From the IMG/VR virus record IMGVR_UViG_3300021960_000048, positions 1 through 64,000 of that record: 64,000 nt of DNA; one strand, given 5' to 3'. Position 1 is the first letter of the stretch. Each line of letters begins with the position of its first letter. The DNA comes from a virus. Shown one piece after another: positions 14,336 to 59,113 of this stretch. The position numbers and the translations under genes are program-made. The notes beneath the pieces were generated by a model. It worked only from the letters and a program-made list of their open reading frames with translations, did no database searches and was not told the DNA's origin.

Positions 14336-14524
14336 CTATTTGACCGAGTTGTGTTCAGGTAGCCAGTCTACCCACATAAGATACTCATTGACTGCCTTAC
14401 AATATTCGCAGTCGTCGTCTAGTTCAGAGATAGAATGACCGCATGGTCCTGTCCAATGATTGTCGATTTCCCATGCGGCCAAACCGTCTTCCAAGAGCCG
14501 AAGTCGAGGGTCGAATGCACTCAT
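14336..14524 (-). CDS. Small Cys/His-rich orphan (second gene of cassette)
   Basis: PCGH...CEYC; ATGA overlap with 14521-14793. Confidence 0.6.
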   Translation of the reverse strand: MSAFDPRLRLLEDGLAAWEIDNHWTGPCGHSISELDDDCEYCKAVNEYLMWVDWLPEHNSVK

Positions 14525-14793
14525 GCGTACACCCTCTCTAATACAGGAGCGACAACCCTGTCAGAAACTCCGTCAACCCTCTCAACGTAAGCCACCATTA
14601 ACTCGTCCATGTTGGTTATGCGAGTAGAATACCAAGCACCGACCTCAGCGTCCCAACGGTGGGTAGCACCGTTGAAAGCAGATACGGTAACGTCTACGGT
14701 CATAGACTCCATTCCGCGACTGTAGTTAACAGTCATTCCCTCTGGCATAGCGTCCCACATTTGTTGAGTCATTTGTTGTTCTTGGCAGTTCAT
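14521..14793 (-). CDS. Cassette orphan protein
   Basis: 90 aa directly behind a class-1 promoter. Confidence 0.75.
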   Translation of the reverse strand: MNCQEQQMTQQMWDAMPEGMTVNYSRGMESMTVDVTVSAFNGATHRWDAEVGAWYSTRITNMDELMVAYVERVDGVSDRVVAPVLERVYA

Positions 14794-14836
14794 GTTCTAA
14801 CGGAGCGGGTGGGGGTATATAACCTTTTAGTTATAG
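14794..14836 (-). promoter_or_regulatory. Class-1 cassette promoter
   Basis: Minus strand CTATAAC-TAAAAG-GTTATATACCCCCACCCGCTCCGTTAGAAC-ATG. Confidence 0.8.
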
Positions 14837-15169
14837 GTCATACGCTTCCGGTAAAGCGAGCCAAGTTTTTTGCGGATATTTGGACCTGCCATCTACGCTG
14901 GAAATCTTTTCAGAACCTACGCATATGAATAGGTGAGGTTTCTTTGCTAGATGATTTGACAAACGATTCATCTCGAATGGTTGATTATCAAGTGCGGCAA
15001 TTTGACCTGTTGTCAAGGCTATGCCATCGGGATGAGTTGCACCCGCTTTCATCATAGCATTCCAAAGACGTTTCACATTACGACCGTCAGACTTGCCTAG
15101 CCGACCTTTTCGGCGTTGACCGTATTTACTGCTAGGCACGTATTTGTCGTCTTGTGGTTTATCATTCAT
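14831..15169 (-). CDS. Basic wHTH-like protein
   Basis: LTTGQIA...MNRLSNHLAK...F...W pattern; Lys/Arg rich. Confidence 0.55.
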   Translation of the reverse strand: MNDKPQDDKYVPSSKYGQRRKGRLGKSDGRNVKRLWNAMMKAGATHPDGIALTTGQIAALDNQPFEMNRLSNHLAKKPHLFICVGSEKISSVDGRSKYPQKTWLALPEAYDL

Positions 15170-17905: not shown

Positions 17906-19060
17906 TTACTCCCAGTCGTCCCAGTCGTCATCAGTTGACGGGGCTTCGTGAGATTTGGCATCCCCCTCTACAGTTTCCGTGTCAGATTCCGCCTCAATAG
18001 AGCCGTCTGTTGCGGTCTCTTCAACGGTTTCTTCAACTGTGGAGTCTTGTGTTTCTTCGTCATCGTCGTCAGCAAAATAATCTGCTGCGTCGTCTGCGCC
18101 GTCGTCCCCTGCTACTGCTTCGGGTACTTCGGGCTTTGGTGGTTCAACAACCACTAGACCGACTGCGATTTCTAGGTTTGCGGATAGTCCGTATTCACCA
18201 TTTACTTTGGTTGTAATGAGTGCTAGGATTCTTGAATATCGACCATATCGAGATGCAATGTCGGGTGTAGTAATACAGTTGAGCATTAGGTTTTCACCGC
18301 TCTCGATTGCATCCATAGTCATAGTTGATTCGTCCTTTAGTAAGACTTTACCGAATTGATTTCCAGTCCTTGAAGTTTGAACCCCTGCATATGATACAGT
18401 CGCTTCAACTAGACGGTAGTCTCTTGGTGTTCTTGAGATGTCGTCCTCTAAGTCTGCTATGTCTGTAACGTCATACAAGTTACGTAGAACGTCCTCAGCG
18501 GGTGAGTGGTCGTATTCTTCCTCATTGAACGCTGTTAAGCCTGTCAATGGTCTTAGGTCTAGCATTTCAGCGTCTAGGTTTCTGCATGATACAGCAGCCT
18601 TCCAAGAGCCTCTTACAAGGTCATCTGCTAGAGCAGCGTCGTCGTCCCATAGAGACATACTGAACATTGCAGGTTCCATGACTGCATCGCCATCTTCAAC
18701 AACGGCTTGACCATATATGAAACATACTGGGCGTGGATTTCCTTTTGCGATTCCGACTGTTCGGTGAGCAACTTCCCATACATCCATATGAGCAGTGTAC
18801 GATTTTTGACGTAGGATGTTAGACAAATCAGTAAGGACACAATCAGTTACGAATCCTTGAGCGGCAGGTGATTTCATTCCACCTAATGCTTGAATTGTTT
18901 CACGTAGATTCGGGTCGTTTGCTTTTCTTGAGAAAAGGTCGACGACTGGAGAATCATCCACGAAAATACCGTTCTGAACACCCCTATCAATGTAGGGCTG
19001 TAAACGGCTCTGTACGTTCTTTGGCAATTTCTTTGTTTTACTAGCGGTCTTTGACGGCAT
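17906..19060 (-). CDS. Putative ssDNA-binding protein (RPA/OB-fold) with acidic tail
   Basis: MSLWDD and FGKVLLKDE OB-like motifs; long acidic C-terminus ending DDDWDDWE. Confidence 0.6.
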   Translation of the reverse strand: MPSKTASKTKKLPKNVQSRLQPYIDRGVQNGIFVDDSPVVDLFSRKANDPNLRETIQALGGMKSPAAQGFVTDCVLTDLSNILRQKSYTAHMDVWEVAHRTVGIAKGNPRPVCFIYGQAVVEDGDAVMEPAMFSMSLWDDDAALADDLVRGSWKAAVSCRNLDAEMLDLRPLTGLTAFNEEEYDHSPAEDVLRNLYDVTDIADLEDDISRTPRDYRLVEATVSYAGVQTSRTGNQFGKVLLKDESTMTMDAIESGENLMLNCITTPDIASRYGRYSRILALITTKVNGEYGLSANLEIAVGLVVVEPPKPEVPEAVAGDDGADDAADYFADDDDEETQDSTVEETVEETATDGSIEAESDTETVEGDAKSHEAPSTDDDWDDWE

Positions 19061-19099
19061 ATTCAAAGTCAGAAATCCCCACCCATATAAAGAGCGTCA

Positions 19100-21055: not shown

Positions 21056-21082
21056 ATTCCCACTCTCCTTATCCTCACCCTA

Positions 21083-21361
21083 TTAAGGTGTTACATCAGA
21101 CCGCCATTTGGTGTCCGGTGGGAATTGTGATACTAGCGACCAATACAAACCGCAGTCATTGTCTCCACATACAACTACGCTATTCGGCCACATATTGCCC
21201 GGTGCTAGAGCCATACAATCAACTGGACCTTTTCTTTTACAGTTAGGGCATTCGGGTAGGGTGAACAAACCCACCACTTCACACTCACGTGCAGGTTGAG
21301 ATTCAGTCGAAGGAGCAAGGACTTTGTTCGGTATTGTCCTATTCATTAGGTATCTTGTCAT
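21083..21361 (-). CDS. Zn-ribbon protein
   Basis: CPNC...CGDNDC. Confidence 0.65.
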   Translation of the reverse strand: MTRYLMNRTIPNKVLAPSTESQPARECEVVGLFTLPECPNCKRKGPVDCMALAPGNMWPNSVVVCGDNDCGLYWSLVSQFPPDTKWRSDVTP

Positions 21362-23612: not shown

Positions 23613-23996
23613 TCAACGGTCTAACCAGTGGGTTCTACCGCCCCAGTAGACATTAAAGCCCTCGTTCTGCAACTCAGCATACAATTCGTTTGTTAGTTGA
23701 TTGCAGCCACATATACAGTCGCGGTCGTCTGCTGATGTGTTGTGAGGCACTTCAACTTCTAAGTCGTAAATGGTGTCGGGGAAGCGGCTTCTACCTTGGT
23801 TGACCCTGTGGTATGAAACTCTTGATGTGATTAAGTTGCGTGGGATTCCAACTGATGTAAGTGGGCGTACTCTGTAAGACCATACACGTACGGATGTTGT
23901 TCCGTACCTTTGCATGTAACAGTCTCCGGGTTCTAAAGTTGGCCTGTCCGGTAGTTCTCTGATTTGTGTTATTAGTTCCGTGATGCGGTTGCTCAT
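23613..23996 (-). CDS. Cassette orphan protein (MSNR...)
   Basis: 127 aa behind a class-1 promoter; CICGC motif. Confidence 0.75.
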   Translation of the reverse strand: MSNRITELITQIRELPDRPTLEPGDCYMQRYGTTSVRVWSYRVRPLTSVGIPRNLITSRVSYHRVNQGRSRFPDTIYDLEVEVPHNTSADDRDCICGCNQLTNELYAELQNEGFNVYWGGRTHWLDR

Positions 23997-24039
23997 GTTC
24001 TATCGGAAGGGGTTAGGGTATATAACATTATGCCTATAG
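23997..24039 (-). promoter_or_regulatory. Class-1 cassette promoter
   Basis: CTATAGG-CATAAT-GTTATATACCCTAACCCCTTCCGATAGAAC-ATG. Confidence 0.8.
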
Positions 24040-24237
24040 GGATTTAATGATGAGTGTTCCCCTAGTGATGTTACACATACACTACCCTTGTATGTGTGTG
24101 CCTGTAAGGGGTATTGGAATTGTATTAATTCTTGTAGAAGGGTTTCCCCCTACGGGGAAACACTTCTAATGATGACCCCTTTTTGTTCACATAGGATGAT
24201 TACACTATATACATGCAAACCTTTATAAGTAAATACA

Positions 24238-26558: not shown

Positions 26559-28129
26559 AGAAGTCAATATTTGGTGAAGAAGCAAGAGAAGCATTGATGA
26601 GAGGAATAAATGAGGTTGCTAATTCAGTTAAACCAACTCTCGGACCTGCTGCTAGAACTGTAATACTAGAGAGACAATTTGGCTCACCAGTTGTAATTAA
26701 TGACGGTGTTACTATTGCTAAAGATATTGATATGAAAGAAGACCCATACGCAAATCTAGGTGTTCGTCTGATTCAAGAGGCAGCAAGTAAGGCTCAAGAT
26801 AATGCAGGGGATGGAACAACTACCGCCTCTATCTTAACTCAGTCATTATGCAACAAAGGATTAGTTGAAATGAAAACAGGTCGTAACCCAATACACATAA
26901 AGAAAGGATTCGATAAGGCAGTTGAGATAGCAGTAAAGTCAATCGAAGAAGCGGCTACCGAAGTCGATGATGATTCTTTGGTTCATGTTGCCACTATCGC
27001 AGCCAATAACGATGAAGCAATTGGTTCTCTGATTTCTCAAGCGTTTCAAAAAGTTGGCAGAGATGGAATTGTTTCAATCGAAGAGTCGAACGGACTCGAC
27101 ACAACTTTGGAAATTGTAGACGGTCTTGAGTTTACTAAGGGTCTCCTTAGCGCCCACTTCATAACAGACACCGAAAAACAAACCACGACGATGAAGAAAC
27201 CATTGATTCTAGTTACCGATGAAATTGTTAGAACCGCTCAAGAAATTGTTGATGTTCTAAATTATGCAGCAGAAATGAAAAGACCGCTTTTGATTATCGC
27301 AGCAAAGATGGAAGGTGAGGCACTTGCTACACTTGCCCTTAACTGTTCACGTGGTATCTTAGAAGTCGCAGCAGTTGAAGCCCCTTCATTTGGTAATTCA
27401 CGTGAAGAAATCCTAACCGATATTGCCACTGTTGTAGGAGCAATTCCGATTTTTGCCAGTAAGGGAATGTCAACTCAAAGGAACGGCATAGAATCACTAG
27501 GTGGTGCAAAGTCAGTTACTTGCTCGATGAAGAGAACAACAATAGTTGGTGGTCGTGGAACAGATGGTGATATTAAGAAAAGACAAGAAGCATTAATCGC
27601 TCAATCGAAAGAGGCTGAAACTGATTGGGAAGCAGAGGCATTGAAAGCAAGAGCAGGGAAGATTTCTGGCGGTGTTGCAGTATTACACATCGGTGGTAAA
27701 ACCGAAGCAGAGATGAAAGAAAGAATCGCACGTGTGGATGATTCATTGAACGCTACTAGAGCCGCTTTACAAGAGGGTATAGTGGTAGGTGGCTCTATCA
27801 TGTATCTACGTGCTAGAGACGAGATACTAGATGCCTCAGACGACCATGAAGGCGACGAATGGCTAGGTATGATGATGGTACATGACGCACTAGCAGAGCC
27901 GTTCCATCAGTTGTGTTTTAACGCAGGTGTTGATAGTGATGAAGCATTAGAACAAGTCATAGAAATGAACGACCCTAACTACGGTCTAAACGCTAAGACG
28001 TTGGAGTTTGGAGACCTCATTGAACAGGGTGTCATTGACCCTGCCAAGGTTGTCAAAAACTCACTGGAAACAGCCGCTTCGATTGCAGGGCTAGTCCTAA
28101 CAACCGAAGTGCTTGTCGCCGAAGTCTAA
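26555..28129 (+). CDS. groEL: Group I chaperonin GroEL
   Basis: TLGP, NDGVTIAK, AGDGTTT, APSFG, EGIVVGG, GVIDPAKV; lacks the GGM tail. Confidence 0.97.
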   Translation: MKKSIFGEEAREALMRGINEVANSVKPTLGPAARTVILERQFGSPVVINDGVTIAKDIDMKEDPYANLGVRLIQEAASKAQDNAGDGTTTASILTQSLCNKGLVEMKTGRNPIHIKKGFDKAVEIAVKSIEEAATEVDDDSLVHVATIAANNDEAIGSLISQAFQKVGRDGIVSIEESNGLDTTLEIVDGLEFTKGLLSAHFITDTEKQTTTMKKPLILVTDEIVRTAQEIVDVLNYAAEMKRPLLIIAAKMEGEALATLALNCSRGILEVAAVEAPSFGNSREEILTDIATVVGAIPIFASKGMSTQRNGIESLGGAKSVTCSMKRTTIVGGRGTDGDIKKRQEALIAQSKEAETDWEAEALKARAGKISGGVAVLHIGGKTEAEMKERIARVDDSLNATRAALQEGIVVGGSIMYLRARDEILDASDDHEGDEWLGMMMVHDALAEPFHQLCFNAGVDSDEALEQVIEMNDPNYGLNAKTLEFGDLIEQGVIDPAKVVKNSLETAASIAGLVLTTEVLVAEV

Positions 28130-28593
28130 GACATAAGTGAAGCCAATTGTTGCACACTTATTGTTCGCGCATTTTCGTATGGTGGGTTAGCGATAGGGTC
28201 GAACACCCAAGCCGCGTCGTCTCGGTAGTCGCAAGTCCAACCAGTGCCTTCGATGTGGCAGAGTGTTGATATTACGAACTGATGCCATACGTTGAAACTA
28301 CCAGACCATTTTTCACCTTCGTGGCTGCGGTGATTCCAGATAACAGTTTCATTAGGTTTAGTGTGGTCGGAACATACCCAAGATGCAGGGCGGTCGTCGC
28401 ACCAGTCAGCCCAGTGTTCTAAGACAGTCATACCGCAGAAGTAAACATGGTCGTCTCTAACTTCGGCTCTTTCAGAGCGGCCAAAATGCTCTAATGAGAT
28501 ATTTAACTCTCTAACGATGTATTCAGCCCATGTCTCGTCTTCTCTTGTCCAACCTTCTTGTCTTCGTGTCTGCCAGTATTCTCTTGCTTTCAT
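28126..28593 (-). CDS. Cassette orphan protein (Trp-rich)
   Basis: 155 aa behind a class-1 promoter, convergent with groEL. Confidence 0.75.
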   Translation of the reverse strand: MKAREYWQTRRQEGWTREDETWAEYIVRELNISLEHFGRSERAEVRDDHVYFCGMTVLEHWADWCDDRPASWVCSDHTKPNETVIWNHRSHEGEKWSGSFNVWHQFVISTLCHIEGTGWTCDYRDDAAWVFDPIANPPYENARTISVQQLASLMS

Positions 28594-28637
28594 GTTCTAC
28601 CGGAAAGGGTATTGGTATATAACATTAATTGTTCTAT
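28594..28637 (-). promoter_or_regulatory. Class-1 cassette promoter
   Basis: ATAGAAC-AATTAAT-GTTATATACCAATACCCTTTCCGGTAGAAC-ATG. Confidence 0.8.
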
Positions 28638-43406: not shown

Positions 43407-43823
43407 TTACTCTTCCATTAAGTCTTGGTAAAACGCTTCGGAGACGAAAGCAATACCGACGTAAAACTCGCCGTTGTCAGTATTTTCACCGGACTCGAAC
43501 ATTACTGCTCTAAGATTTCTGCTTCTAGCGATTTCAGATGGAGATACTAAGTCTCCCTCGATGGTCGCCATAATGTCGTAGCGTAGTACGTATGGGGATA
43601 GAAGGTGGAATGATGAAAGGCCAGATGGATTTTCACCGTCGCAGTAAGCGTTTTCTGATTCGGTTCTGCGTGAGATGATTCTCTCTAAACAAGGAGATGG
43701 CCCGTTAAAGTATTGAGCCATAGTGTGATTCAATTCGATGTAACCTATTGAACCCTCTTGGATAATGTCATTCCAGTTGTCGGTGTTACGCATGTCGTTT
43801 TCGGCTGTTATTGGGTTGCTCAT
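43407..43823 (-). CDS. Cassette orphan protein (MSNP...)
   Basis: 138 aa, acidic, behind a class-1 promoter. Confidence 0.75.
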   Translation of the reverse strand: MSNPITAENDMRNTDNWNDIIQEGSIGYIELNHTMAQYFNGPSPCLERIISRRTESENAYCDGENPSGLSSFHLLSPYVLRYDIMATIEGDLVSPSEIARSRNLRAVMFESGENTDNGEFYVGIAFVSEAFYQDLMEE

Positions 43824-43866
43824 GTGTTAGGGGAGAGGGTGGGGGTATATAACACTTTAGTTATAT
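43824..43866 (-). promoter_or_regulatory. Class-1 cassette promoter (perfect palindrome)
   Basis: ATATAAC-TAAAGT-GTTATATACCCCCACCCTCTCCCCTAACAC-ATG. Confidence 0.85.
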
Positions 43867-43869
43867 GCT

Positions 43870-45973: not shown

Positions 45974-46144
45974 TCAGCGACAAGTAGTACCTGCGTACAC
46001 TCTTTCACTTTGACAGTTGATACAAATGAAGATGATGTCTCCTGTCTCTCGGTCATAGTGTCGGTGTATGTCGTCAGCGTTTCTTTGGTGCATTCCGCCA
46101 CAGTCTTGGCATAGGTTGTCTGTTTGGTCTATTGGGTTGCTCAT
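45974..46144 (-). CDS. Cassette orphan: 56-aa Zn-finger microprotein (MSNP...)
   Basis: Not in the track; MSNPIDQTDNLCQDCGG...FICINCQSERVYAGTTCR behind a class-1 promoter. Confidence 0.75.
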   Translation of the reverse strand: MSNPIDQTDNLCQDCGGMHQRNADDIHRHYDRETGDIIFICINCQSERVYAGTTCR

Positions 46145-46187
46145 GTTCTAACGGAGAGGATGCCCCTATATAACCTTTGTGTTATAT
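46145..46187 (-). promoter_or_regulatory. Class-1 cassette promoter (perfect palindrome)
   Basis: ATATAAC-ACAAAG-GTTATATAGGGGCATCCTCTCCGTTAGAAC-ATG. Confidence 0.85.
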
Positions 46188-46477
46188 TACTTTCTCTTTT
46201 TGTTCCACAAGTCAATGAGATACAATGCTTTTCTAGCGTCTCCTATTGGTTTGGGTTTTACTTTTTTGGGCTTTGGTCTGTCGGCAAAGCAAACTTCGCA
46301 GCGGGTCAACTTTGATTCGTCGGCTAGATATTTTTCTGGCATACCCGCGTCCGGTTGTTTACCACCGTCGCACTTACGAACTTTGTCATAGTAGACACTA
46401 ACGAACTCGCCTTCACCTTCTACTCTTCTCACTTCTTTAAGCAAGTGAAGAACACTCCAGTTATACTTTTGACTCAT
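46187..46477 (-). CDS. Basic hypothetical protein
   Basis: 96 aa, CEVC, Lys-rich tail. Confidence 0.6.
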   Translation of the reverse strand: MSQKYNWSVLHLLKEVRRVEGEGEFVSVYYDKVRKCDGGKQPDAGMPEKYLADESKLTRCEVCFADRPKPKKVKPKPIGDARKALYLIDLWNKKRK

Positions 46478-46682
46478 AGTCGGGATGCTCCTTCGGTAGT
46501 TTGTGTAACCTTCGATATGCTAGATTGCCAATTAAGTCAGACACATTTTCTGCCGCCTGTTTAACTCTCTTTCTACTATGCTCGTCCTTCCCCATTTCTC
46601 TTAACACTGGGGCTATGTCAATTTTAGTCATGATGTGCATGAGGATTTCATACTCTGCGTGGCTAATTGTTTTCGCTCTCAT
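46461..46682 (-). CDS. Hypothetical protein
   Basis: 73 aa; TTATATA box 28 nt upstream. Confidence 0.65.
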   Translation of the reverse strand: MRAKTISHAEYEILMHIMTKIDIAPVLREMGKDEHSRKRVKQAAENVSDLIGNLAYRRLHKLPKEHPDYESKV

Positions 46683-46714
46683 AGTGTCGAGACGGACTAT
46701 ATGTATATAAGACT

Positions 46715-47077
46715 TTATATTAACTCTCTTCTACCTTGTTGCTTTGCTGTTTTCATTCTATGATGATTAGCACAAAGAGGTTCACACTTTGATACTTCTT
46801 CCATTATCGTGTCCCAACCGTAGCCGTCAGACACCATCAGAGATATGTTTGCTACTTTCTTTGAAGGGTCTAAATGATGCAAGTCAATTGCTTCGGGGTC
46901 ATCATTGAAGCCACATACAGCACACGCTAATTGAGACTTGTATTCATCCCACTTACGTTTGAGTAATTGCTTTCTAGCCTTGACCCTAGAACGCATTAAT
47001 TCTTTGTTCTGGTGGTAATACTTGCGTTGATATTCCTTGTTATATTCCCTACGTTTCTTAGGGTCTTTGTAGGGCAT
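46715..47077 (-). CDS. HNH endonuclease
   Basis: CAVCG...DLHH...KCEPLCANHHR, basic N-terminal helix. Confidence 0.85.
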   Translation of the reverse strand: MPYKDPKKRREYNKEYQRKYYHQNKELMRSRVKARKQLLKRKWDEYKSQLACAVCGFNDDPEAIDLHHLDPSKKVANISLMVSDGYGWDTIMEEVSKCEPLCANHHRMKTAKQQGRRELI

Positions 47078-47946: not shown

Positions 47947-48138
47947 TTAAGAAGATAATACGATTCTCTCACTGCCGCTGTAGAACGCTCGTCCTCTTCG
48001 GAAGTTAAAGGTCGTCTCTACACCGTTTACCATTGCTGTTTGAGTTTCGTACACGTTTACCATTCTGAATGTGCATGTACTTGGTGTGTGCTGTGTGTTT
48101 ATTATTTCGCCATTGAAGCCTACTATTTGGTTGCTCAT
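47947..48138 (-). CDS. Cassette orphan protein (MSNQ...)
   Basis: 63 aa behind a class-1 promoter. Confidence 0.7.
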   Translation of the reverse strand: MSNQIVGFNGEIINTQHTPSTCTFRMVNVYETQTAMVNGVETTFNFRRGRAFYSGSERIVLSS

Positions 48139-48181
48139 GTTATTGCGGAGCGACTACCCCTATATAAGATGTTCGTTATAT
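48139..48181 (-). promoter_or_regulatory. Class-1 cassette promoter
   Basis: ATATAAC-GAACAT-CTTATATAGGGGTAGTCGCTCCGCAATAAC-ATG. Confidence 0.8.
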
Positions 48182-48184
48182 GGA

Positions 48185-52262: not shown

Positions 52263-52424
52263 TTAATGCTCCATGAAACCCGTACTTGGTGAAGCACAAG
52301 TGGAATAACATTCCCTACATATGAATGTAAAGTAAGTTACTCCTTCAAACACTTCTGATACGTTCCTAACTATGTTAAACTGGTTGCTGTTGCATTCTGG
52401 TTGGCTGCATGCTATAATTGTCAT
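52263..52424 (-). CDS. Cassette orphan: 53-aa Zn-ribbon microprotein
   Basis: Not in the track; MTIIACSQPEC...TYFTFICREC behind a class-1 promoter. Confidence 0.7.
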   Translation of the reverse strand: MTIIACSQPECNSNQFNIVRNVSEVFEGVTYFTFICRECYSTCASPSTGFMEH

Positions 52425-52466
52425 GATTGGCGGTAGGGGTATAGGTATATAACATTTACCCTATAT
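52425..52466 (-). promoter_or_regulatory. Class-1 cassette promoter
   Basis: ATATAGG-GTAAAT-GTTATATACCTATACCCCTACCGCCAATC-ATG. Confidence 0.75.
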
Positions 52467-53422
52467 CACTTACGAAGTCTTGCTTTCTCATCAGAGATTA
52501 CTTTTCTCATATGTGAGAGACCTCTGCTACCAACCATTAACCATTTGACTTGAGCAATCACACCTGCAAGTCTGAAATCCTTGTAGTGCCTAGCCGACCA
52601 TGCTTCTCTGAGACGGACGGCCTTCTCATCTGTTGGAGTCTTGGCTTCTCCCATTTGACTATGGACTTTTGATAATCGAGTAAATTGTGTATTACCTAGA
52701 ATGTTCCCACCCCTTTTCCATATCTGAGGCCATTCCTCTTTCAACTTCTGAGCCTCGGCAAGAGGGAATTGGTCGTACTCAGAATTACGTAGGCTCACCT
52801 TCTTATCATCTCCCCTCTTTGGAAAATTAGTCTTAGGTGCTTTCTCTACTACCTGCTTACTCTTAGAAGATTGAGGATGCCCTGCGGGTAGTAAGTCGGT
52901 GTCATGCTTGCCGCCTCTAAATCTACCATTGCGTAAAACATAGAGAAAAGAATTGACTCTAGCATACGCCCATTGTTCAGCCGAAGTTACGGTTGGACGA
53001 ACGCTGCCGGGATTTGTTTGATATGCACCAACACCTCGGTCAAACACGGCACTCAACGTACGGACGTTGGTTCTCTTACTTGCCACGTTTCCAACATCTG
53101 CGTTATGTTTCTCTGCTTTTTCTTTGAGAGTTTTCTTTACAGCAGCACTGGCTTTTTGCTCACCTTTTGTTTCTGGTTTCTTTATCTTACGGAGCATCTT
53201 AGTTCTAACTGCAACTCTTCTATCGGACCGGGTATAAGTTCCATCTTCGTTATTGACGTACACCCTTACAATACCAACTGTTTCGCTAGAACTTGCTTCG
53301 ATTGTTTCAGTACCACCACTTGAAGTAACAACTTGGTGTTTACCTGCATTATTTACAGACTCGACCTGTCCAACATACCTACCTTTTCGTGTAGCCCAAC
53401 TTACATAATCTCCTTTATTCAT
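52466..53422 (-). CDS. Basic multidomain head-module protein
   Basis: N-terminal SH3/Tudor-like GDYVSW; VFDRGVGAY...QWAYARVNSFL domain; lies between portal and protease genes. Confidence 0.65.
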   Translation of the reverse strand: MNKGDYVSWATRKGRYVGQVESVNNAGKHQVVTSSGGTETIEASSSETVGIVRVYVNNEDGTYTRSDRRVAVRTKMLRKIKKPETKGEQKASAAVKKTLKEKAEKHNADVGNVASKRTNVRTLSAVFDRGVGAYQTNPGSVRPTVTSAEQWAYARVNSFLYVLRNGRFRGGKHDTDLLPAGHPQSSKSKQVVEKAPKTNFPKRGDDKKVSLRNSEYDQFPLAEAQKLKEEWPQIWKRGGNILGNTQFTRLSKVHSQMGEAKTPTDEKAVRLREAWSARHYKDFRLAGVIAQVKWLMVGSRGLSHMRKVISDEKARLRK

Positions 53423-53850
53423 GGTAAATACACCTTCTTTATTGATTCCTTAACTGCTTTACTTACTCCTTTACTACCCATTTTGCTACGTTTATTCTTC
53501 ATAGCAACTGCGTCAACTGCGGGACGTAGATACGGCCTAGGTGCAAATGGAGCATACTCGAATCGTCCAAACTCAACTACACTTGCGTATCTTACCTTTG
53601 TGTTACCGAATCTAACTTCCATTGCTCTCCTGTATTTTGATATTGCTCTCTTACTTCTTACCACTCTTCCAGAGTTTTTGAGAGCCGATGTCTGGACCGG
53701 AACTAACTGTTGAGCAATTCTAAGAATCTCCTTAGCAACCTTCTCCGTGTAAGGTTCGCTGAAACTTTCGTTGATGTGAGCGCCGAGATAATTGAAATCG
53801 TATGCTGCTTTGAAAAACGCATTACCATCAACAGTTGCATACTTCGGCAT
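53419..53850 (-). CDS. HK97 gp10-like neck protein
   Basis: AQQLVPVQTSALKNS, YASVVEFG, PRPYLRPA. Confidence 0.85.
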   Translation of the reverse strand: MPKYATVDGNAFFKAAYDFNYLGAHINESFSEPYTEKVAKEILRIAQQLVPVQTSALKNSGRVVRSKRAISKYRRAMEVRFGNTKVRYASVVEFGRFEYAPFAPRPYLRPAVDAVAMKNKRSKMGSKGVSKAVKESIKKVYLP

Positions 53851-55307
53851 TATTCCTCATTCTCCAGTCCAAGTAAACGATATTCAAGAAGTTCGTCCAT
53901 ACCAAAGACTATGCCTTCTTCAACCAGATTCTCTGCCGCTTCTTCAACTGATTCGGGTTCTTCACCTTCCCCATCTTCAACCTTGCCTTTGTTAATTGCT
54001 AACTTAGGTGATAGGAAGAATGGGTCGTTTGCTTCTTCCTTGTCTAGTAATGGCGCAAGTCCTAATACTTCTCTTGCTTCATTGATACTGATTGCCGACT
54101 CTTGTCTTAGGTTGGAAATTGCTTGTGAGCGTAGACGGAAAGTGTCTGCTCTCTCTGATTCACGTGATGGTCTAATTGTATTGAAATGTATTTTCCAATC
54201 TGTTACTTCTAGTAACGGTAATAGTTTATTGTTGATAGCCGAAGATACTCTATGATGGTAAGACTCGACTACATCATACCAAGCATCTAATTGTTGTTCG
54301 GGGTTAGACATCTTACCTGTCTGAACCCATCCAAGTTTCATTGGTGGAATACCGAACACTGCACATATCTCTTCACGGTAGTAGTATAGTAAATCCAACT
54401 GCTGTCCTTCTTTAGTTGAATCAATAAGCCTGTGCATATTGAAACCCGAACCGCCGTTGATTGCTACAAGTCCGAATGGAGACTTACCTGCTGTCAATTG
54501 TTGTTCTAGTAAACCTAGCATTGCCTTCATTTCAGAATTGCTTATGTCTCCAACATTAAGTATCGTCTTAGGTAGAGTTCCAGTGAACATCTCGTTTAGG
54601 TAGTTGCTGAGATTCATTTGACCTGCAATTGTATTCAACAATGGTATCAATGGCGAAGTTCCGTAGCCTCGCCCTTGTTTGAACTTCGAGATATGAAGAA
54701 TCTTGTTTGAAGCGAACCTACGCTTCTCCTTTCTTATCTCTTGAATGTAAGCCATTTCTGGTGGCTCTGGTCTTTGATTGCCGGGTAATAATCTCATTGT
54801 TTCAGCAGGTACAGGCCACACACTTACTAAGTTCCCACCGTAAACCCAGTCCTCTCCGTTGGCGCTACTCTCATCATCGTCGCCATCTAACTCAAGGTAT
54901 GAGTCTCCGAATAATGCTAAGTCGTAGACTAAAGATTCTAGCCATTCATCACCCATGTCATCGGGGTTAGGTGTTCGGAAAAAATCATGCAACCTTTGTA
55001 ATTGTTCTTCATTGCCTTCTTCTACTCCAGACATAAGTCTGAACTCATAACCATTGGCTAACACGTCATCTACGGTTCTTCGTAGAATAGCATTGACGAC
55101 TTCCGATTTCAGAGAAATATCTCGCAGTAAATGATATGAAATCTGTGTGTTCGCTCCACTTGCCGCCGCTTTCTTTGCTGAGACTGTTGCTATCTTAGAT
55201 AAAGACGCTAGACTTTTAGCGTCCCAAGGGATGTCATTCCTTACAGGTTTGACCTCTTTATTCTCCCGTCGACGAAAGAAATTGAAACGTCTGCGTTCCT
55301 CTGCCAT
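53850..55307 (-). CDS. Portal protein
   Basis: PNP, LALFGDSY, GYGTSP, EICAVFGIPP, ISINEAREVLGL. Confidence 0.92.
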   Translation of the reverse strand: MAEERRRFNFFRRRENKEVKPVRNDIPWDAKSLASLSKIATVSAKKAAASGANTQISYHLLRDISLKSEVVNAILRRTVDDVLANGYEFRLMSGVEEGNEEQLQRLHDFFRTPNPDDMGDEWLESLVYDLALFGDSYLELDGDDDESSANGEDWVYGGNLVSVWPVPAETMRLLPGNQRPEPPEMAYIQEIRKEKRRFASNKILHISKFKQGRGYGTSPLIPLLNTIAGQMNLSNYLNEMFTGTLPKTILNVGDISNSEMKAMLGLLEQQLTAGKSPFGLVAINGGSGFNMHRLIDSTKEGQQLDLLYYYREEICAVFGIPPMKLGWVQTGKMSNPEQQLDAWYDVVESYHHRVSSAINNKLLPLLEVTDWKIHFNTIRPSRESERADTFRLRSQAISNLRQESAISINEAREVLGLAPLLDKEEANDPFFLSPKLAINKGKVEDGEGEEPESVEEAAENLVEEGIVFGMDELLEYRLLGLENEE

Positions 55308-55333
55308 GTCGTACCCTCATAGGTGGTGGGTTT

Positions 55334-55465
55334 TTACGTTGTCGTATCGAGTTCAAGTTCTTTAACTTTACAACAAACACAATGTTCGTCATGCGGTAAA
55401 CTCAACTGAGAGCAAGTATTCACTGGACCATTCAAGCAATATTTGAAATCAGTCTTTATTGTCAT
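55334..55465 (-). CDS. 43-aa Cys-rich microprotein
   Basis: My translation MTIKTDFKYC...C...HCVCCKVKELELDTTT; fills the gap exactly. Confidence 0.45.
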   Translation of the reverse strand: MTIKTDFKYCLNGPVNTCSQLSLPHDEHCVCCKVKELELDTTT

Positions 55466-55697
55466 CTTGTTTCTTCTCTTTTGCCTCTTCGATGATTTCT
55501 TCTACATCTTCTTTGGCTTGTTCCACTTTCTCAACGCCTTCTTCTACTGCATCTAGGACTTCTCCTAAACTCAGTTTGCCGTCAGCCATTAGAGTCTGAT
55601 ACTTACGTAGACCCCATATAGCAAGTGGTATTAGAACCGCTACGACTGCTAAACCCATTAGTAAATCGTCTGTAGTCAGTCCTTCGAGCATGACCAA
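55449..55697 (-). CDS. Single-pass membrane protein (holin-like)
   Basis: One TM helix, ADGKLSLGE motif, charged coiled C-terminus. Confidence 0.65.
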   Translation of the reverse strand: MVMLEGLTTDDLLMGLAVVAVLIPLAIWGLRKYQTLMADGKLSLGEVLDAVEEGVEKVEQAKEDVEEIIEEAKEKKQDDNKD

Positions 55698-55723
55698 AGG
55701 GGGGAGAACATCGTTAATAACGG

Positions 55724-56341
55724 TTACTCGGACTTCTTATCGGTCTTTTTTGCTACTGGTTTCTTGTCTACTGGCTTTGCTCCAGTTGCTATTGAGTTAG
55801 TTCCAGTTACACCGAATGCTTCCATGTTTAATTCGTGTGCTTTAGACATCCTCTCGATTTCTAAATCGTGCTGTAGTTTTAGTTGCTCTAGTAAACGCAC
55901 GTGTGCTTTCTCTGCTTCTGCTGAATCAACTTCACTTTGTAGTTGGTCTGGTAGAATGTTTATCTTTGCTCCTTCTTTACCTTTGAATAAGTCAAGAACA
56001 GATGTAATGATAAGAAGTGCTGGACCGCCTAATAGACCAATAACTGTTAGTTGTGAGTCTGAAATCTCACGTTGCTCTACTATACTAAAGTAAGATGCGG
56101 TGGCTGCTATAACTACCCAAGCCAGTACAACACCCATACCGAATGTCAACATAAGTTTCTCATTAGGATTCGACATTCTCATTGCCATCGGTTTATATGA
56201 GCGAAAGAGGCGGTATTTGAGGGTAGTTGTGAAAAAGTATATAAGCCGCCATCCCATATAGGTAGTGGTTGTGAGTAGGGCGGCGAGCATAATCAACAAA
56301 GATAGTGTTCCTAATGCTATCATTTCCATAGCCTCGCCCAT
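55724..56341 (-). CDS. Multi-pass membrane protein (holin-like)
   Basis: Three hydrophobic segments plus a coiled-coil, Lys-rich tail. Confidence 0.65.
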   Translation of the reverse strand: MGEAMEMIALGTLSLLIMLAALLTTTTYMGWRLIYFFTTTLKYRLFRSYKPMAMRMSNPNEKLMLTFGMGVVLAWVVIAATASYFSIVEQREISDSQLTVIGLLGGPALLIITSVLDLFKGKEGAKINILPDQLQSEVDSAEAEKAHVRLLEQLKLQHDLEIERMSKAHELNMEAFGVTGTNSIATGAKPVDKKPVAKKTDKKSE

Positions 56342-56451
56342 AAGAAATTAAGAGCATGGTTAAGCATTTGCGTAGCCGACATTATACCGAAGCAAAGCAT
56401 GACAACAAAGACACCCATTCCACATGCTGAAATTAAATCGTTTATTGTCAT
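56320..56451 (-). CDS. 43-aa membrane peptide
   Basis: My translation MTINDLISACGMGVFVVMLCFGIMS...WARLWK; fills the gap. Confidence 0.5.
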   Translation of the reverse strand: MTINDLISACGMGVFVVMLCFGIMSATQMLNHALNFLWARLWK

Positions 56452-56452
56452 A

Positions 56453-56692
56453 TCACATCAACATCGGTAAGCCAGACGTAGCAACTATCGCAGCAAGTAG
56501 ATACATGCCATATCTCTTAAGCAAGTCCTTTATTTCTTTAACGAATCCTTCTACACTTGTTAACCGTTGGTCGATTGATTGTACTTCTAATTTCATAGAA
56601 GCCATGTCTTTCTCAACATGATGAAGATGATTGTCTCTGATTGTTCTAACATCTTCTACTAAGACCTTAATCAATTCAGATTGGTCATCCAT
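56453..56692 (-). CDS. Coiled-coil protein with C-terminal TM helix (XhlA-like architecture)
   Basis: Heptad region followed by YLLAAIVATSGLPMLM. Confidence 0.65.
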   Translation of the reverse strand: MDDQSELIKVLVEDVRTIRDNHLHHVEKDMASMKLEVQSIDQRLTSVEGFVKEIKDLLKRYGMYLLAAIVATSGLPMLM

Positions 56693-56725
56693 GTCGATAG
56701 CCCTATACTATCTAGTTATTGACGA

Positions 56726-58252
56726 TTAACCCCCGAATACTCTTATCTCTGGCATCCCTATGTCCTCTACTAACTCTGCTGCAAGCCTAGCATATAGTAA
56801 AGCGTGGAATGCGTGGTCGTCTCCATCTCGTCCATATTTTGTAAGTTTTTGACCTCGCACTGGTCGAGTATCTTTCTCATCTTTTTCTGCTGATGAATTG
56901 AGAGAACACCATTCATGTAGAACCCATTCAAATGAAGTATCTGCGTAGGGTAAGTGAATCTCATTATTTTTTATCGCCTCAATTGTTTCTTCAACGTAAG
57001 TTGTTCTATCAACAACTAACATATAGATTAGATTTCGATTATTGTCTCGCCTCTTATATTCAAACGGAGTCATAGGCCGAGATGAATAATAACACGAACG
57101 TACACGCTCGCCAAACTCTGCTTGTAGTTCCTTCACCTGTCTTGCTCCATACCCTATGTCTGCGACCACTTGCGTACAGTTGTAGCGTAGCATTAGGTCT
57201 TTGATGACCGCTACCTCATCGAACTCATTGTCGGCCTTAGAATCGAGTTTTAGACAATTCAAAATCGTACCGTCTTTCTTCATGATAACGACTGTTGTTT
57301 CATTACCCCAGTCCACACCCATAACAGATTCTTCGGGGGGTGTCAATCCTTTGAGATTCTTTTCTAGTTGCGGTCGGGCCGCTTGTAAAACGACATCGAA
57401 TGTAAGGGGCTTCGTAGAACCTGCGAAGAACTCGCCCAGAACCTCGTTTGCGAATCGTCGTGGAGTGTAGGTGTTTCGTTTGTATTCTATTTCTTCGGGG
57501 TCAATATCGGGGTGCATCTTTTGACTGATATGATAACCAATAATATCTGATTCTCCATGAACCCACTTCTCGCCATCCCACTCACCTTTAGTTGATTTCT
57601 CCCATAGTTTCCAAAACTCTGAACCCTGCTCACGGGCAGTTCCACTTACTACAACCCACTTGTATTCAGACTGAGCAAGCATCTCAATTAGCATTGGCAA
57701 AACATCAGCGTCAGAGTCTTGGTATTCGTCCACACAACATAGGTCAGCCTCAACCCCAAGTAACGCATGTGCGTCGCCCCAGTTAGAGTAAGCATAGAAA
57801 TGATTCAGAGAACGCGCTCCAACATCAAATGTTTGATGACTTACAGATTGTTTTACTCTCGACTTCATTAGACAACCGTGATTGATGGACGACATTAACG
57901 CACCATTGAATCTCTCATCTACGAATCTCGTTACCTGTGGTTGTCTCGGTGCGGTATAGACGGCGTTGAAGTATGGTATGTTCATCAGTCCATACATTAA
58001 GAGATTACAAATCGTTTCAGTTTTCTCAACCTTACGACTACACTTCAAGACTATCATTTTTGTTTTTCTTGATTTCTGAGTTGCACCAAAGTGTCGGTAT
58101 ATCTCAATTAGATATGGTCGCTCATGTAACATGAATGCCTTACCATCTATGGTTCGGAAATACTGAGACCAACGGTCTGGATAGAGAGCAATATCCCTAG
58201 CCTGTTCGGGAGTCAGTTTGCCGCCCGTATAGTCGTGTGTGTCCACGTCCAT
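56726..58252 (-). CDS. terL: Terminase large subunit
   Basis: RKVEKTE (variant Walker A), CCVDEYQD Walker B, SGT, GVDWG nuclease motif, DDHAFHA. Confidence 0.9.
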   Translation of the reverse strand: MDVDTHDYTGGKLTPEQARDIALYPDRWSQYFRTIDGKAFMLHERPYLIEIYRHFGATQKSRKTKMIVLKCSRKVEKTETICNLLMYGLMNIPYFNAVYTAPRQPQVTRFVDERFNGALMSSINHGCLMKSRVKQSVSHQTFDVGARSLNHFYAYSNWGDAHALLGVEADLCCVDEYQDSDADVLPMLIEMLAQSEYKWVVVSGTAREQGSEFWKLWEKSTKGEWDGEKWVHGESDIIGYHISQKMHPDIDPEEIEYKRNTYTPRRFANEVLGEFFAGSTKPLTFDVVLQAARPQLEKNLKGLTPPEESVMGVDWGNETTVVIMKKDGTILNCLKLDSKADNEFDEVAVIKDLMLRYNCTQVVADIGYGARQVKELQAEFGERVRSCYYSSRPMTPFEYKRRDNNRNLIYMLVVDRTTYVEETIEAIKNNEIHLPYADTSFEWVLHEWCSLNSSAEKDEKDTRPVRGQKLTKYGRDGDDHAFHALLYARLAAELVEDIGMPEIRVFGG

Positions 58253-58287
58253 ACAGGGGTCAGCCCACTACACGGCACTTAACGGTT

Positions 58288-59070
58288 CTAAGCCCTTTGA
58301 ATGGTGCTGTGTTGGTCAACCCATTCCTCGGCAGTCCTTCGGTCAGAGAAGGTCATAATGACTCCACCAGTGTCGTTGTCAACTACGTTCCATTCGCCGC
58401 CAGTTGTTTCAAGAATGTCAGCATTTACTTTTTCGTACTGTGCTTCTTGAACTACCCTTGCTGTTTTGGTAGACCAAGGCAAACCCCAGTTCTTCGCACA
58501 TGTTGGACCGTAGCCGTGAGCGGTACTCTCTTCGGTTTTCAAAGCCTTGTGGCAGAAGCAGCAGTTTCCAGTTTTTGCACCGTAGTCTCTAGCCGCATTT
58601 ACTGGGTCGTTGTTTAACAATGTAAGGAACTTGGTAAACAAAGCCTCGTCATTTTCACTGGTTGAGCGAGCAAAAGATAGTCCACCCTGCGGTGAAACTT
58701 TTCCGATGTAGTCCTCGTTCATAGTGCGGATTGCTTTCAGATAAATGCTGCCGGGATTTCTGCCACTAGCAGGGGCTAAGGAAATACATAGGTCAGTGTA
58801 AGCAGATACAGAGAAAGTTACTTTTGGATATTTGAGTTTCTCACCTGCTCGACTTAGCAAAGCGACCATAGGAGCGTAAGGACCTTCGACTATTGGCTGT
58901 GGACTAGAATAGTCGTGGATTCTTTGAAGAATGTTGAGTTGCTTTGGAGACATTCTTCGTCCCTTGTCTAGTTGCTCTTGACAAGATGAGACAAAGGATT
59001 TCTCCCAGTCATTCTTGGCGTTCTCGGTTGCTTTCTTGATTAGAACTGTGGTTTCCATTGTTGCGTTCAT
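58288..59070 (-). CDS. Cassette gene with a DUF6011-like Zn finger
   Basis: CCFCHKALKTEES...GYGPTCA; N-terminal W..SF..S...Q......SPKQ motif; behind a class-1 promoter. Confidence 0.8.
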   Translation of the reverse strand: MNATMETTVLIKKATENAKNDWEKSFVSSCQEQLDKGRRMSPKQLNILQRIHDYSSPQPIVEGPYAPMVALLSRAGEKLKYPKVTFSVSAYTDLCISLAPASGRNPGSIYLKAIRTMNEDYIGKVSPQGGLSFARSTSENDEALFTKFLTLLNNDPVNAARDYGAKTGNCCFCHKALKTEESTAHGYGPTCAKNWGLPWSTKTARVVQEAQYEKVNADILETTGGEWNVVDNDTGGVIMTFSDRRTAEEWVDQHSTIQRA

Positions 59071-59113
59071 GTTATACCGTAGGGGCTAGGGGTATATAAC
59101 AATTCAGTTTTGT
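59071..59113 (-). promoter_or_regulatory. Class-1 cassette promoter (distal arm degenerate)
   Basis: ACAAAAC-TGAATT-GTTATATACCCCTAGCCCCTACGGTATAAC-ATG. Confidence 0.75.

Follow-up and report, generated by a model that had tools for sequence, protein, structure and literature searches.

An element that recurs in eight clear copies along the genome of a magrovirus-like tailed virus is best explained, with a probability of about 70%, as a set of archaeal core promoters for leaderless mRNAs, each followed by a small gene of fast turnover, with recombination between the copies shuffling promoter-plus-gene units. The virus encodes GroEL and has a genome of ~81–82.8 kb; the window analysed here is a stretch of 64,000 nucleotides from it (IMG/VR record IMGVR_UViG_3300021960_000048, positions 1 to 64,000). 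Among uncultured host-virus pairs of the surface ocean, Marine Group II archaea and their viruses rank with the most abundant, and we know of no published work on transcription in these viruses. The genome under study (G000) was compared with its relatives G001, G002 and a series of L-numbered loci. The relatives are metagenome assemblies throughout, and the key variants were seen again in independent samples. The element-bearing set comprised ~100 related IMG/VR and metagenome loci with about ten fixed slots; the RNA-derived contigs examined contained only capsid and protease genes.

Layout and conservation of the element

The eight clear copies all lie on the minus strand, directly 5′ of the ATGs at 14793, 23996, 28593, 43823, 46144, 48138, 52424 and 59070 (Table 1). 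TTATATA starts 29 nt before the ATG in seven of them and 28 nt before it in the copy at 52424. The original prediction had named these copies and this spacing, and had also called two further copies, at 1661 and 63508, weak; our analysis agreed on each point. The weak copy at 1661 has a twin at 82451–82497 in a diverged terminal repeat. Additional copies were found beyond the window at 75176 (−) and at 78645, 79026, 79625 and 79794 (+), those on the plus strand at 78.6–79.8 kb standing 5′ of non-coding units that end in T runs.

The occurrence of the element is not random. The pattern ATATAAC-N6-GTTATATA gave 17 strand matches where shuffles predict 2.4, and not one of 100 shuffled sequences had as many. 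With a 39-column PWM, element copies scored 29–49 bits, compared to a shuffle maximum of 0.5. Across the whole 82.8-kb genome, nine of 16 TTATATA heptamers on the coding strand lie 28 or 29 nt before an ATG, compared to none of three on the other strand. The same TATA-to-ATG spacing of 28 or 29 nt is fixed in all eight window copies and in 86 unique copies from relatives.

Numbered from the A of the ATG, which serves as the reference and is not a mapped start, TTATATA occupies −29 to −23 (centre −26). The consensus of the 86 unique elements contains a purine-rich, BRE-like C-g-a-a-A at −37 to −33 in addition to TTATATA and CATG, and nAAAnG, found on the coding strand only, forms the “spacer” of the palindrome in the window copies. 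On the 3′ side of the TATA box follow a G- or C-tract, a conserved CC-N-CT(A/C)CG, an A/T-rich TAGAAC or TTAAAC, and an initiator-like C at −1 with A at +1. The stretch from −22 to −1 is unusually conserved, and conservation extends to about +14. G-type and C-type tracts occupy the same position (55 GGGG, 21 CCCC), and the GGGG of slot E is replaced by CCCC in the orthologous element of G002/L003. Relatives with as little as 65% capsid identity retain the element, and ~34 of roughly 40 credible metagenome matches are contigs encoding proteins of this virus group. It forms a sequence class distinct from the weaker boxes 5′ of other genes, most of which have degenerate boxes at the same distance.

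The combination of a BRE-like box, TATA at a fixed distance and C/A at −1/+1 is promoter-like, as had been proposed, suggesting that each element is a full-length archaeal core promoter for a leaderless mRNA. The A/T-rich TAGAAC or TTAAAC would lie over the melting region and, because of the pyrimidine/purine initiator, the A of the ATG is the predicted first transcribed base. Host TBP, TFB and RNA polymerase would use the elements as the strongest promoter class of the virus. Judging from the interchange of GGGG and CCCC and from the plus-strand copies before non-coding units, the element is probably recognized as DNA rather than as RNA.

The elements are dispersed through the replication (slots A–C), tail (D–F), head (G) and packaging (H) modules alike. 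Intergenic gaps measure 33–56 nt in seven of the eight copies, so that the gap is taken up by the element, which borders on the upstream stop codon, slot B being the exception. Both features are as originally described. The genes behind the elements may form an early or host-takeover regulon, as was also predicted.

Table 1. Element copies in the window and the cargo genes behind them
Feature	Position	Strand	Description
Slot A element	14791..14837	−	CTATAAC distal, BRE-like TAAAAG, TTATATA at −29, CCCC, CTCCG, TAGAAC, ATG; PWM 42 bits
Slot A cargo	14521..14793	−	90 aa, no known family
Slot B element	23994..24040	−	Distal box CTATAGG, imperfect palindrome; PWM 43 bits
Slot B cargo	23613..23996	−	127 aa, MSN start, no known family
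Slot C element	28591..28637	−	Distal arm degenerate (TAGAACA); PWM 33 bits
Slot C cargo	28126..28593	−	155 aa
Slot D element	43821..43867	−	Perfect 7-6-7 palindrome; PWM 41 bits
Slot D cargo	43407..43823	−	138 aa, MSN start
Slot E element	46142..46188	−	Perfect palindrome, GGGG form
Slot E cargo	45974..46144	−	56 aa, two CxxC pairs
Slot F element	48136..48182	−	GGGG form; PWM 42 bits
Slot F cargo	47947..48138	−	63 aa
Slot G element	52422..52467	−	28-nt spacing, distal box ATATAGG
Slot G cargo	52263..52424	−	53 aa, Cys-rich
Slot H element	59068..59114	−	Distal box CACAAAAC, not palindromic
Slot H cargo	58288..59070	−	260 aa, DUF6011 zinc-finger protein, directly upstream of large terminase
Weak extra variant	46680..46726	−	CTTATATA 28 nt before ATG of 73-aa ORF 46461–46682
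Weak copy, vWA/CobT gene	63506..63550	−	TTCATATA box, TTG-AGC-AAC start, little else of the element
Weak copy at 1661	1659..1708	−	Good palindrome; TATA 32 nt from ATG; heads a short ORF only

Cargo genes and their turnover

Each element had been predicted to drive a short, unrelated orphan gene in a self-contained cassette. The cargos are indeed mutually unrelated and, apart from DUF6011 in the slot H protein, without Pfam or PHROG function, but the slot H cargo is conserved group-wide and stands behind the element even in distant relatives, and is therefore not an orphan. The start ATG-AGC-AAC is shared by four cargos (ATGs at 23996, 43823, 46144 and 48138), and the vWA gene has the TTG form of it, as had been noted. 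The units are not self-contained. Neither a T5+ tract nor a strong hairpin was present within 90 nt of the stop codon of any cargo, so the units lack insulation and transcription may continue into the core genes. Directly 3′ of the cargo lies the box that belongs to the following gene. Slot A holds two coupled genes, the cargo stop overlapping the start of a 62-aa ORF (14336–14524), and the slot C cargo is convergent with the GroEL gene (26555–28129, +), with a 4-nt overlap.

With dN/dS values of 0.11–0.54, the cargos are real genes; the first gene behind an element would typically be a small accessory gene under purifying selection that turns over quickly. Among 129 element instances we counted 46 unrelated cargo clusters in about ten slots. 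For element genes, the median of identity multiplied by coverage relative to G001 was 18, compared to 65 for the other genes (p = 0.0015). The slot B cargo is 35% identical to the G001 cargo in the same slot, slot D holds other cargo families in relatives (114 aa in G001/L010, 126 aa in L011), and at least five other families were found in slot F.

Three cargos stand out from their surroundings even in close comparisons, with dS of 0.7–1.3 beside flanks of 0.1–0.3. The slot A cargo shares 64% amino acid identity with that of G002 between flanks of 93–96% (dS 0.72, flanks 0.24–0.30), and the cargos of slots F and G have dS values of 1.09 (flanks 0.17–0.33) and 1.34 (flanks 0.09–0.12). Compared to L003, the flanks of slot G are 100% identical and its cargo ~65% identical at the DNA level. 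The other five of the eight cargos (B, C, D, E and H) have flank-like dS relative to G002.

Gain, loss and exchange of element-headed units

The original prediction had raised the possibility that the element marks a unit of gene acquisition or shuffling, and relatives support it: element-headed units have been gained, lost, exchanged and duplicated, so the cargos are not a conserved, syntenic set without empty sites. Presence and absence between collinear relatives showed slots filled, doubled and emptied. At slot A, L088 and L154, the latter from a separate sample, carry an extra element with a 93-aa unit, the indel junction falling inside the element. At slot E, the cargo of G002/L003 is preceded by an additional cassette of 150 nt with a 33-aa ORF, flanked by two near-identical elements, and here too the indel junction lies inside the element. 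The slot B cargo is deleted in the close relative L082, from just past the TATA box to the last ~25 nt of the ORF; this deletion used a 4–5-nt microhomology and not a second element. Cargos also recur in different slots: the extra slot A cargo of L088 is homologous to the slot F cargo of L012 (48% identity, E = 2e-20), and L045 has paralogous cargos (74%) in two slots.

Cargo replacement was seen in slots F and G, where identity between G000 and G002 breaks at 47902, 47966 and 48115 and at 52249, 52381 and 52448, respectively. Only 23 sharp identity breakpoints separate these two genomes, and four of eight cargo stops and two of eight element ATGs lie within 60 nt of one (random expectation, 0.35 of 8). 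The whole genome is mosaic, and the slots are syntenic over long distances. In G001, the distal halves of the elements are 85% alike among themselves and 69% alike when compared with the same-slot elements of G000; likeness within a genome suggests concerted evolution.

These footprints are what homologous recombination or gene conversion between copies would leave, whether within one genome or between co-infecting relatives, since about ten slots share ~50–60 nt (−45 to about +14) that are nearly identical in sequence. Such recombination would add, delete, duplicate and exchange promoter-plus-gene units that are ready to express.

Alternative explanations

Ordinary strong promoters that head transcription units could produce this picture if the first gene were dispensable and drifting, the genome recombined everywhere and the element had no part in exchange. 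The slots are fixed and syntenic among G000, G002 and G001, the cargos lack terminators, and element ATGs show no significant excess of breakpoints over the remaining gene starts (Fisher p = 0.36). Moreover, dS is heterogeneous genome-wide and not significantly higher in cargos overall (p = 0.15), and the L082 deletion was mediated by microhomology. We nevertheless consider this explanation unlikely: two independent extra cassettes with junctions inside the element bear the footprint of inter-copy recombination, homologous cargos stand behind the element in different slots, about ten slots hold as many as 46 cargo families, and both the GGGG-to-CCCC block swap and the likeness within genomes point to gene conversion. 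If the element does take part in exchange, it might do so as the target site of a site-specific recombinase in an integron-like cassette system, where repeated imperfect inverted repeats would likewise bound variable single-gene units. Yet a Pfam scan of about 70 ORFs recognized no integrase or recombinase family, and what stays invariant among the copies is not the inverted repeat but a promoter held at constant spacing from the ATG. The cassettes are also dispersed instead of arrayed, with junctions at varying positions, and we regard this as the least probable of the readings considered.

The palindrome, which the original prediction took as a defining feature, invites two other readings. 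Its arms are complementary in some copies, but it is limited to this clade: where relatives retain the TATA-to-ATG core, CACAAAAC, TTTGAGCGG or ATAGGCGA boxes stand in place of the distal ATATAAC arm. The 7-6-7 inverted repeat may be the operator of a dimeric virus-encoded regulator that sits over the BRE/TATA region and times an early or repressed regulon of eight genes, in which case the repeat would be kept for regulation and not for recombination. Repressors of archaea and their viruses commonly bind over the TATA box or start site. At least five of seven arm positions are complementary in 25 of 88 unique elements (1.5% expected), and the distal box is uniform within a genome and lineage-specific (ATATAAC here, CACAAAAC in G001), as a co-evolving factor and its site would look. 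On the other hand, the palindrome is missing from most clades that keep the core and, within the window, from three of eight copies (28593, 59070 and, in part, 23996), several distal box types coexist in single relatives such as L046, and the scan of about 70 ORFs recognized no DNA-binding regulator, so an operator is a tentative proposal, albeit one that can be compatible with leaderless promoters whose copies recombine. The element could also act as RNA, the hairpin terminating or processing the upstream transcript or the conserved stretch serving as a translation signal. The arms can pair and the element adjoins the upstream stop codon; however, the predicted hairpins consist largely of A and U, have low stability (−0.2 to −8 kcal/mol, typically about −4), are missing in many copies, including three of the eight in the window, and in most clades, and are not followed by a T run. 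Only in duplex DNA would a swap of G- and C-tracts be neutral. A Shine-Dalgarno sequence is lacking, and the stretch from −22 to −1 would not be transcribed from this promoter because the TATA geometry puts the start at the ATG. A role as RNA is thus very improbable.

Relation to known systems and significance

Like the element, archaeal leaderless core promoters have a BRE, their A/T box is centred at about −26, and the ATG carries a pyrimidine/purine initiator. Their TATA-to-start region is usually poorly conserved, whereas here it is nearly invariant, even at 65% capsid identity. In lambdoid phages, a moron consists of a promoter, a gene and a terminator, and is an extra gene between core genes. 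The units described here resemble morons in having their own promoter, in sitting between core genes and in being present or absent among relatives, but no terminator is detectable and the promoters are copies of one sequence.

A closer parallel is offered by the promoter-early stem-loops (PeSLs) of T4-type phages (Arbiol et al. 2010, PMC2839356; Comeau et al. 2014, PMC4122927). In both systems, a repeated promoter motif of consensus strength, here judged by its sequence, fills short gaps 5′ of small ORFans, some of them inside core modules, the cargo is highly variable, and motif copies bound indels and replacements between close relatives, with the L082 deletion as a counter-example. PeSLs are bacterial sigma-70 promoters with a Shine-Dalgarno sequence, in contrast to the BRE/TATA, leaderless arrangement found here. 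Their G/C stem-loop is stable and was shown to terminate transcription, whereas here the hairpin is weak and clade-specific and there is no terminator; conservation here spans −22 to +14. PeSLs cluster in hyperplastic regions, while these units are dispersed singly. Promoter activity and mini-circles have been demonstrated for PeSLs; for the present element, promoter activity is predicted from its sequence. The similarity is one of function, not of common descent.

The original prediction knew of no such description in an archaeal virus, but there is a precedent. In the haloarchaeal myovirus HGTV-1 (Sencilo et al. 2013, as summarised in PMC3950731), most ORFs of one arm are preceded by a TATA-plus-inverted-repeat motif, which has been compared to the PeSLs of T4 and put forward as a means of shuffling. 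In HGTV-1 (NC_021328, 50–100 kb), we found that roughly two-thirds of 38 gaps contain CGAAA-N3-4-TTAAGTA ~27–31 nt 5′ of the ATG. Both are archaeal tailed viruses with BRE/TATA at a leaderless distance before many small hypothetical ORFs, in HGTV-1 in gaps of 25–40 nt, although the two motifs have no sequence relationship. What recurs in HGTV-1 is the BRE-TATA part alone (~16 nt), compared to the whole of −45 to +14 here, and its motifs fill one genome arm, whereas here units are scattered between core modules. As that summary presents it, the HGTV-1 proposal came from resemblance; here relatives provide direct comparative evidence of gain, loss and exchange.

A more far-reaching view, which we offer as speculation that is rather doubtful as a whole, is that Marine Group II viruses form a gene-exchange network in which the element serves at once as top-strength promoter and as recombination handle. 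Accessory genes, possibly for host takeover or anti-defence, would move between slots and lineages, perhaps via excised circles, and the stretch from −22 to −1 would be read by a dedicated factor, either virus-encoded or a host TFB/TBP with a different normal box, giving a separately controlled regulon.

The element provides a concrete, testable promoter consensus for Marine Group II viruses. Leaderless starts appear to be the rule in this virus, which would also correct gene calling. Slot genes can be harvested from metagenomes by searching for the element, and the about ten slots of accessory-gene turnover are natural candidates for host-takeover or counter-defence functions. Promoter-mediated modular shuffling has been demonstrated in T4-like phages. 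For archaeal viruses it was no more than a suggestion, made for one haloarchaeal virus, and it now gains comparative evidence in a second, unrelated group.

A recurrent element precedes eight genes of the magrovirus genome

On the minus strand, a recurrent sequence of ~45 nt (the element) lies directly before the ATGs at 14793, 23996, 28593, 43823, 46144, 48138, 52424 and 59070, here called slots A to H in that order, and its parts are listed in the table. The original prediction of eight copies was confirmed, with 17 strand matches to the palindrome observed versus 2.4 expected and position-matrix scores of 29–49 bits for element copies versus a shuffle maximum of 0.5. Across the genome, 9 of the 16 TTATATA heptamers on the coding strand and 0 of 3 on the other strand stand 28 or 29 nt before an ATG. 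As claimed, the 1661 and 63508 copies are weak, and the predicted abutment on the upstream stop was borne out in 7 of 8 slots, where the element fills a gap of 33–56 nt and adjoins that stop. Since AGC-AAC-C-N-AATA continues four of the ORFs after the ATG, conservation extends to about +14. Both the conservation over the full length, from -45 to +14, and the dispersed single-unit layout are new here.

The contig is 82.8 kb long, and the window covers its first 64 kb. The two contig ends (window 1-2000, genome 80789-82791) match one another at only 90% identity along ~2 kb, giving a unit length of about 80.8 kb. The contig probably derives from a ~80.8-kb genome that is circularly permuted or has terminal redundancy, with two strain variants merged in its assembly. 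The other end repeat holds a twin of the weak 1661 element, at about 82451. Nearly all genes are on the minus strand, and the encoded functions match those of published GroEL-encoding magroviruses (PMC5434244, PMC11706807). The bacterial-type GroEL gene (26555-28129, plus strand; E = 4e-138 to solved GroELs) is the only long plus-strand gene of the window and is convergent with the gene of slot C, with a 4-nt overlap. No RNA genes emerged from genome-wide Rfam and tRNA scans. Large collagen-repeat proteins are encoded at window 3702-10379, among them an 847-aa protein with eight collagen triple-helix stretches and a CBM_5_12 module; many internal DNA repeats occur at 4–9 kb of the window, and no other large genes are as poorly conserved in comparison with related genomes as the collagen-repeat genes.

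Parts of the element, other promoter-like boxes and gene groups of the genome
Feature	Position	Strand	Remarks
Distal box, ATATAAC or variant	first of the parts, in order	-	
Six purine-rich bases, nAAAnG	after distal box		
(G)TTATATA	starts 29 nt before ATG; 28 nt at 52424		
CCCC or GGGG	after TTATATA		
CC-N-CTCCG	after CCCC/GGGG tract		
TAGAAC, then ATG	after CC-N-CTCCG		
CGTTAAnnC, GTCAATA or GTAAAAAC boxes	-31..-22; within window 42881-56726		before structural genes
TTATAT(T/G)GGTGGGG	-31..-22; window 17906-23423		before several replication genes (17906, 19100, 21684)
Three genes sharing leader GCCTCTCGG-N-AGGTCTGAGGTA	L001:12679-15545 (genome 76679-79545)	-	
Structural proteins			HK97-type capsid, prohead protease, portal, large terminase, tape measure
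Replication proteins			family B DNA polymerase, RFC-like clamp loader, primase-polymerase, SF2 helicase, PD-(D/E)XK nuclease
Accessory proteins			MoxR/vWA pair, GT4 glycosyltransferase, bacterial-type GroEL

The element has the layout of an archaeal core promoter

Counted from the A of the ATG, the middle of the TATA box falls at -26, and C/A at -1/+1 makes up a pyrimidine/purine initiator. Among 86 unique copies from this virus group, C-g-a-a-A is the consensus at -37..-33 and is BRE-like, so that the 'loop' of the palindrome would be the BRE. Archaeal core promoters that drive leaderless transcripts have this arrangement, and from it we infer both promoter activity and the start site. Most other genes have weaker boxes equally far from the ATG; leaderless starts thus predominate, and the element represents the class with a perfect consensus. 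Three minus-strand genes starting at 77221, 78946 and 79545 have in common the leader GCCTCTCGG-N-AGGTCTGAGGTA ~10 nt before the ATG and are therefore not leaderless.

G-tracts and C-tracts swap at the same position of the element (55 versus 21 copies), even at one orthologous slot between close relatives, and plus-strand copies at 78.6–79.8 kb precede non-coding 80–95-nt units ending in T runs; the swap and these copies argue for recognition as duplex DNA rather than RNA. The plus-strand copies number four (78645, 79026, 79625 and 79794; L001:14640-15850, genome 78640-79850, beyond the window) and stand back-to-back with minus-strand promoters. Three of them precede the non-coding units, which start with GGGGTGGACGG, form a closing stem and have T runs at their ends. 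These units may be small RNAs; they matched nothing in Rfam or the tRNA scan, nor any sequence of the related genomes G001, G003 and G005.

Related sequence was detected in five public RNA runs, with all assembled contigs derived from relatives 90–95% alike (four studies). Because these contigs cover mainly the protease and capsid genes, they are uninformative on starts at the elements. One 3-kb contig spans both genes (49132-52157). A Shine-Dalgarno-like GGAAGTGA precedes the capsid gene, which lacks its own box; this is consistent with co-transcription of the capsid gene with the protease gene.

The palindrome is limited to one clade

The original prediction described the element as palindromic, which does not hold as a general property. 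Of 88 unique elements, 25 have a distal arm that matches the complement of the TATA arm at 5 or more of 7 positions, versus 1.5% expected, and all 25 come from the window's own clade and its nearest relatives. In G001, an 80.7-kb relative, all copies have CACAAAAC as the distal box, and more distant relatives have TTTGAGCGG, ATAGGCGA or CTTGAGG there, with the TATA-to-ATG core kept. Predicted hairpins are weak (-0.2 to -8 kcal/mol) and no T-run terminator was found after hairpins or cargos (the first genes behind each element), leading us to reject a hairpin terminator. Given these results and the clade-limited arms, the palindrome is not a defining feature of the element, and a terminator role like that of the promoter-early stem-loops (PeSLs) of T4-type phages is unlikely. 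An integron-like cassette system is also unlikely: the cassettes are dispersed, not arrayed, and no recombinase was found among about 70 ORFs scanned with Pfam. Binding of the distal box by a lineage-specific factor is possible; no virus-encoded regulator was recognised among the ORFs scanned. Just past the stop of the slot B cargo lies a strong G/C palindrome, GGTGGGGGAACACCCCCC (window 23560-23612), the only strong hairpin after any cargo, ahead of the helicase gene's own TATA box.

Cargos are gained, lost and exchanged among relatives

The eight cargos encode proteins of 53–260 aa, several with CxxC pairs, and have no similarity to one another. Searches of Pfam, PHROGs, PDB sequences and the ESM Atlas returned nothing on function beyond DUF6011 in the 260-aa protein. 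Among relatives, cargo dN/dS is 0.11–0.54, and thus the cargos are real genes. The DUF6011 gene lies directly before the large terminase gene and stays behind an element even in distant relatives; it is conserved and no orphan. Slot A holds a second, translationally coupled ORF. The slot A genes (window 14336-14793) are matched at 61–72% in the distant genome G003, whose core proteins mostly show 44–63% identity, and lack a match in the much closer G001, which suggests that the unit may have been transferred between lineages.

For comparison, 106 IMG/VR loci were collected with capsid and helicase protein probes, followed by four more whole contigs, and the element was found in relatives down to 65% capsid identity. 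The 129 element-headed ORFs fell into 46 unrelated clusters in only about ten slots, as set by flanking core genes, with at least six different cargos in the slot between the 170-aa and 129-aa tail-region genes. Identity multiplied by coverage against G001 had a median of 18 for element genes versus 65 for other genes (p = 0.0015), and element genes were also less conserved than small genes only (p = 0.010).

Individual slots record the events. At slot A, L088 carries an additional element and a 93-aa ORF, a structure also present in L154 from a different sample; in the alignment, the indel junction falls within the element, the lone copy of the window corresponding to the first L088 copy upstream and the second downstream. 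At slot E, G002/L003 have an additional 150-nt unit (33-aa ORF) between two near-identical elements. The slot B cargo is missing from the close relative L082 through a deletion from just past the TATA box to the last ~25 nt of the ORF, using a short ACCC microhomology. L012 has, as its slot F cargo in the structural module, a homologue of the extra cargo that L088 carries in the replication module (48% identity, E = 2e-20), and L045 has paralogous cargos (74%) in two slots. In slots F and G, L003 and the window show 100% identity as far as about -10 of the element; identity is only 60–65% across the cargo and is complete again from the box of the next gene onwards. Between this genome and G002 there are 23 sharp identity breakpoints, eight of them at the edges of four cassettes, and 4 of 8 cargo stops lie within 60 nt of a breakpoint (0.35 expected). 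The distal halves of G001 elements are 85% alike mutually versus 69% against same-slot elements of this genome, which together with the GGGG/CCCC block swap indicates apparent gene conversion between element copies.

Several points limit a reading as shuffling at the element. The genome is mosaic throughout, and the slots are stable over long evolutionary distances. Synonymous divergence is clearly above that of the flanks in only 3 of 8 cargos, the overall test of cargo dS against other genes was not significant, and breakpoints between this genome and G002 are not significantly richer at element ATGs than at other gene starts. All sources are metagenome assemblies, with key variants recurring in independent samples. 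The interpretation first proposed was thus partly supported: cassettes appear to be gained, lost and exchanged among relatives, for which the comparative evidence is new here, but the palindrome is clade-limited and the DUF6011 cargo conserved.

Occurrence outside this virus group and comparison with known systems

A metagenome scan for the TATA-to-ATG core returned 48 stretches, about 34 on contigs of this virus group, about 8 that were chance matches on non-marine contigs rich in G+C, and a few on marine contigs without classification. Recognisable cellular genes lay beside none of the 48, a weak hint that the host lacks the element. With the GroEL gene as seed, a scan of genome contigs yielded a Ramlibacter GroEL and a Nanoarchaeia fragment and nothing else. 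On four marine contigs (L129, L130, L132 and L148), the core TATATAGGGG..CCCCTACG.TAGAACATG is preceded by AATAATAAT-rich sequence; they have no homologues of this virus's ORFs, and L148 encodes a Zot-like P-loop ATPase. This suggests that other mobile elements of the same host may use the element.

The nearest functional counterpart is the PeSL, a repeated early promoter and terminator stem-loop before ORFans that mediates indels, replacements and mini-circles (PMC2839356, PMC4122927). The two have in common a repeated consensus promoter, a tie to variable small genes and motif-bounded indels. Unlike the PeSL, the magrovirus element does not qualify as a terminator stem-loop and is built on BRE/TATA, without a leader or Shine-Dalgarno sequence. 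In the haloarchaeal myovirus HGTV-1, most ORFs of one genome arm are preceded by a TATA-plus-inverted-repeat motif that has been likened to PeSLs (PMC3950731), and of 38 short gaps in its record (NC_021328), roughly two-thirds had CGAAA-N3-4-TTAAGTA ~27–31 nt ahead of the ATG. Such motifs are thus already known in archaeal viruses, contrary to the initial statement that no description was known. The magrovirus papers found make no mention of promoters, and so the host–virus group is new for them. The best reading of the element is that of a set of leaderless consensus promoters in front of accessory genes with fast turnover, the repeated promoter sequence doubling as a substrate for cassette gain, loss and exchange.
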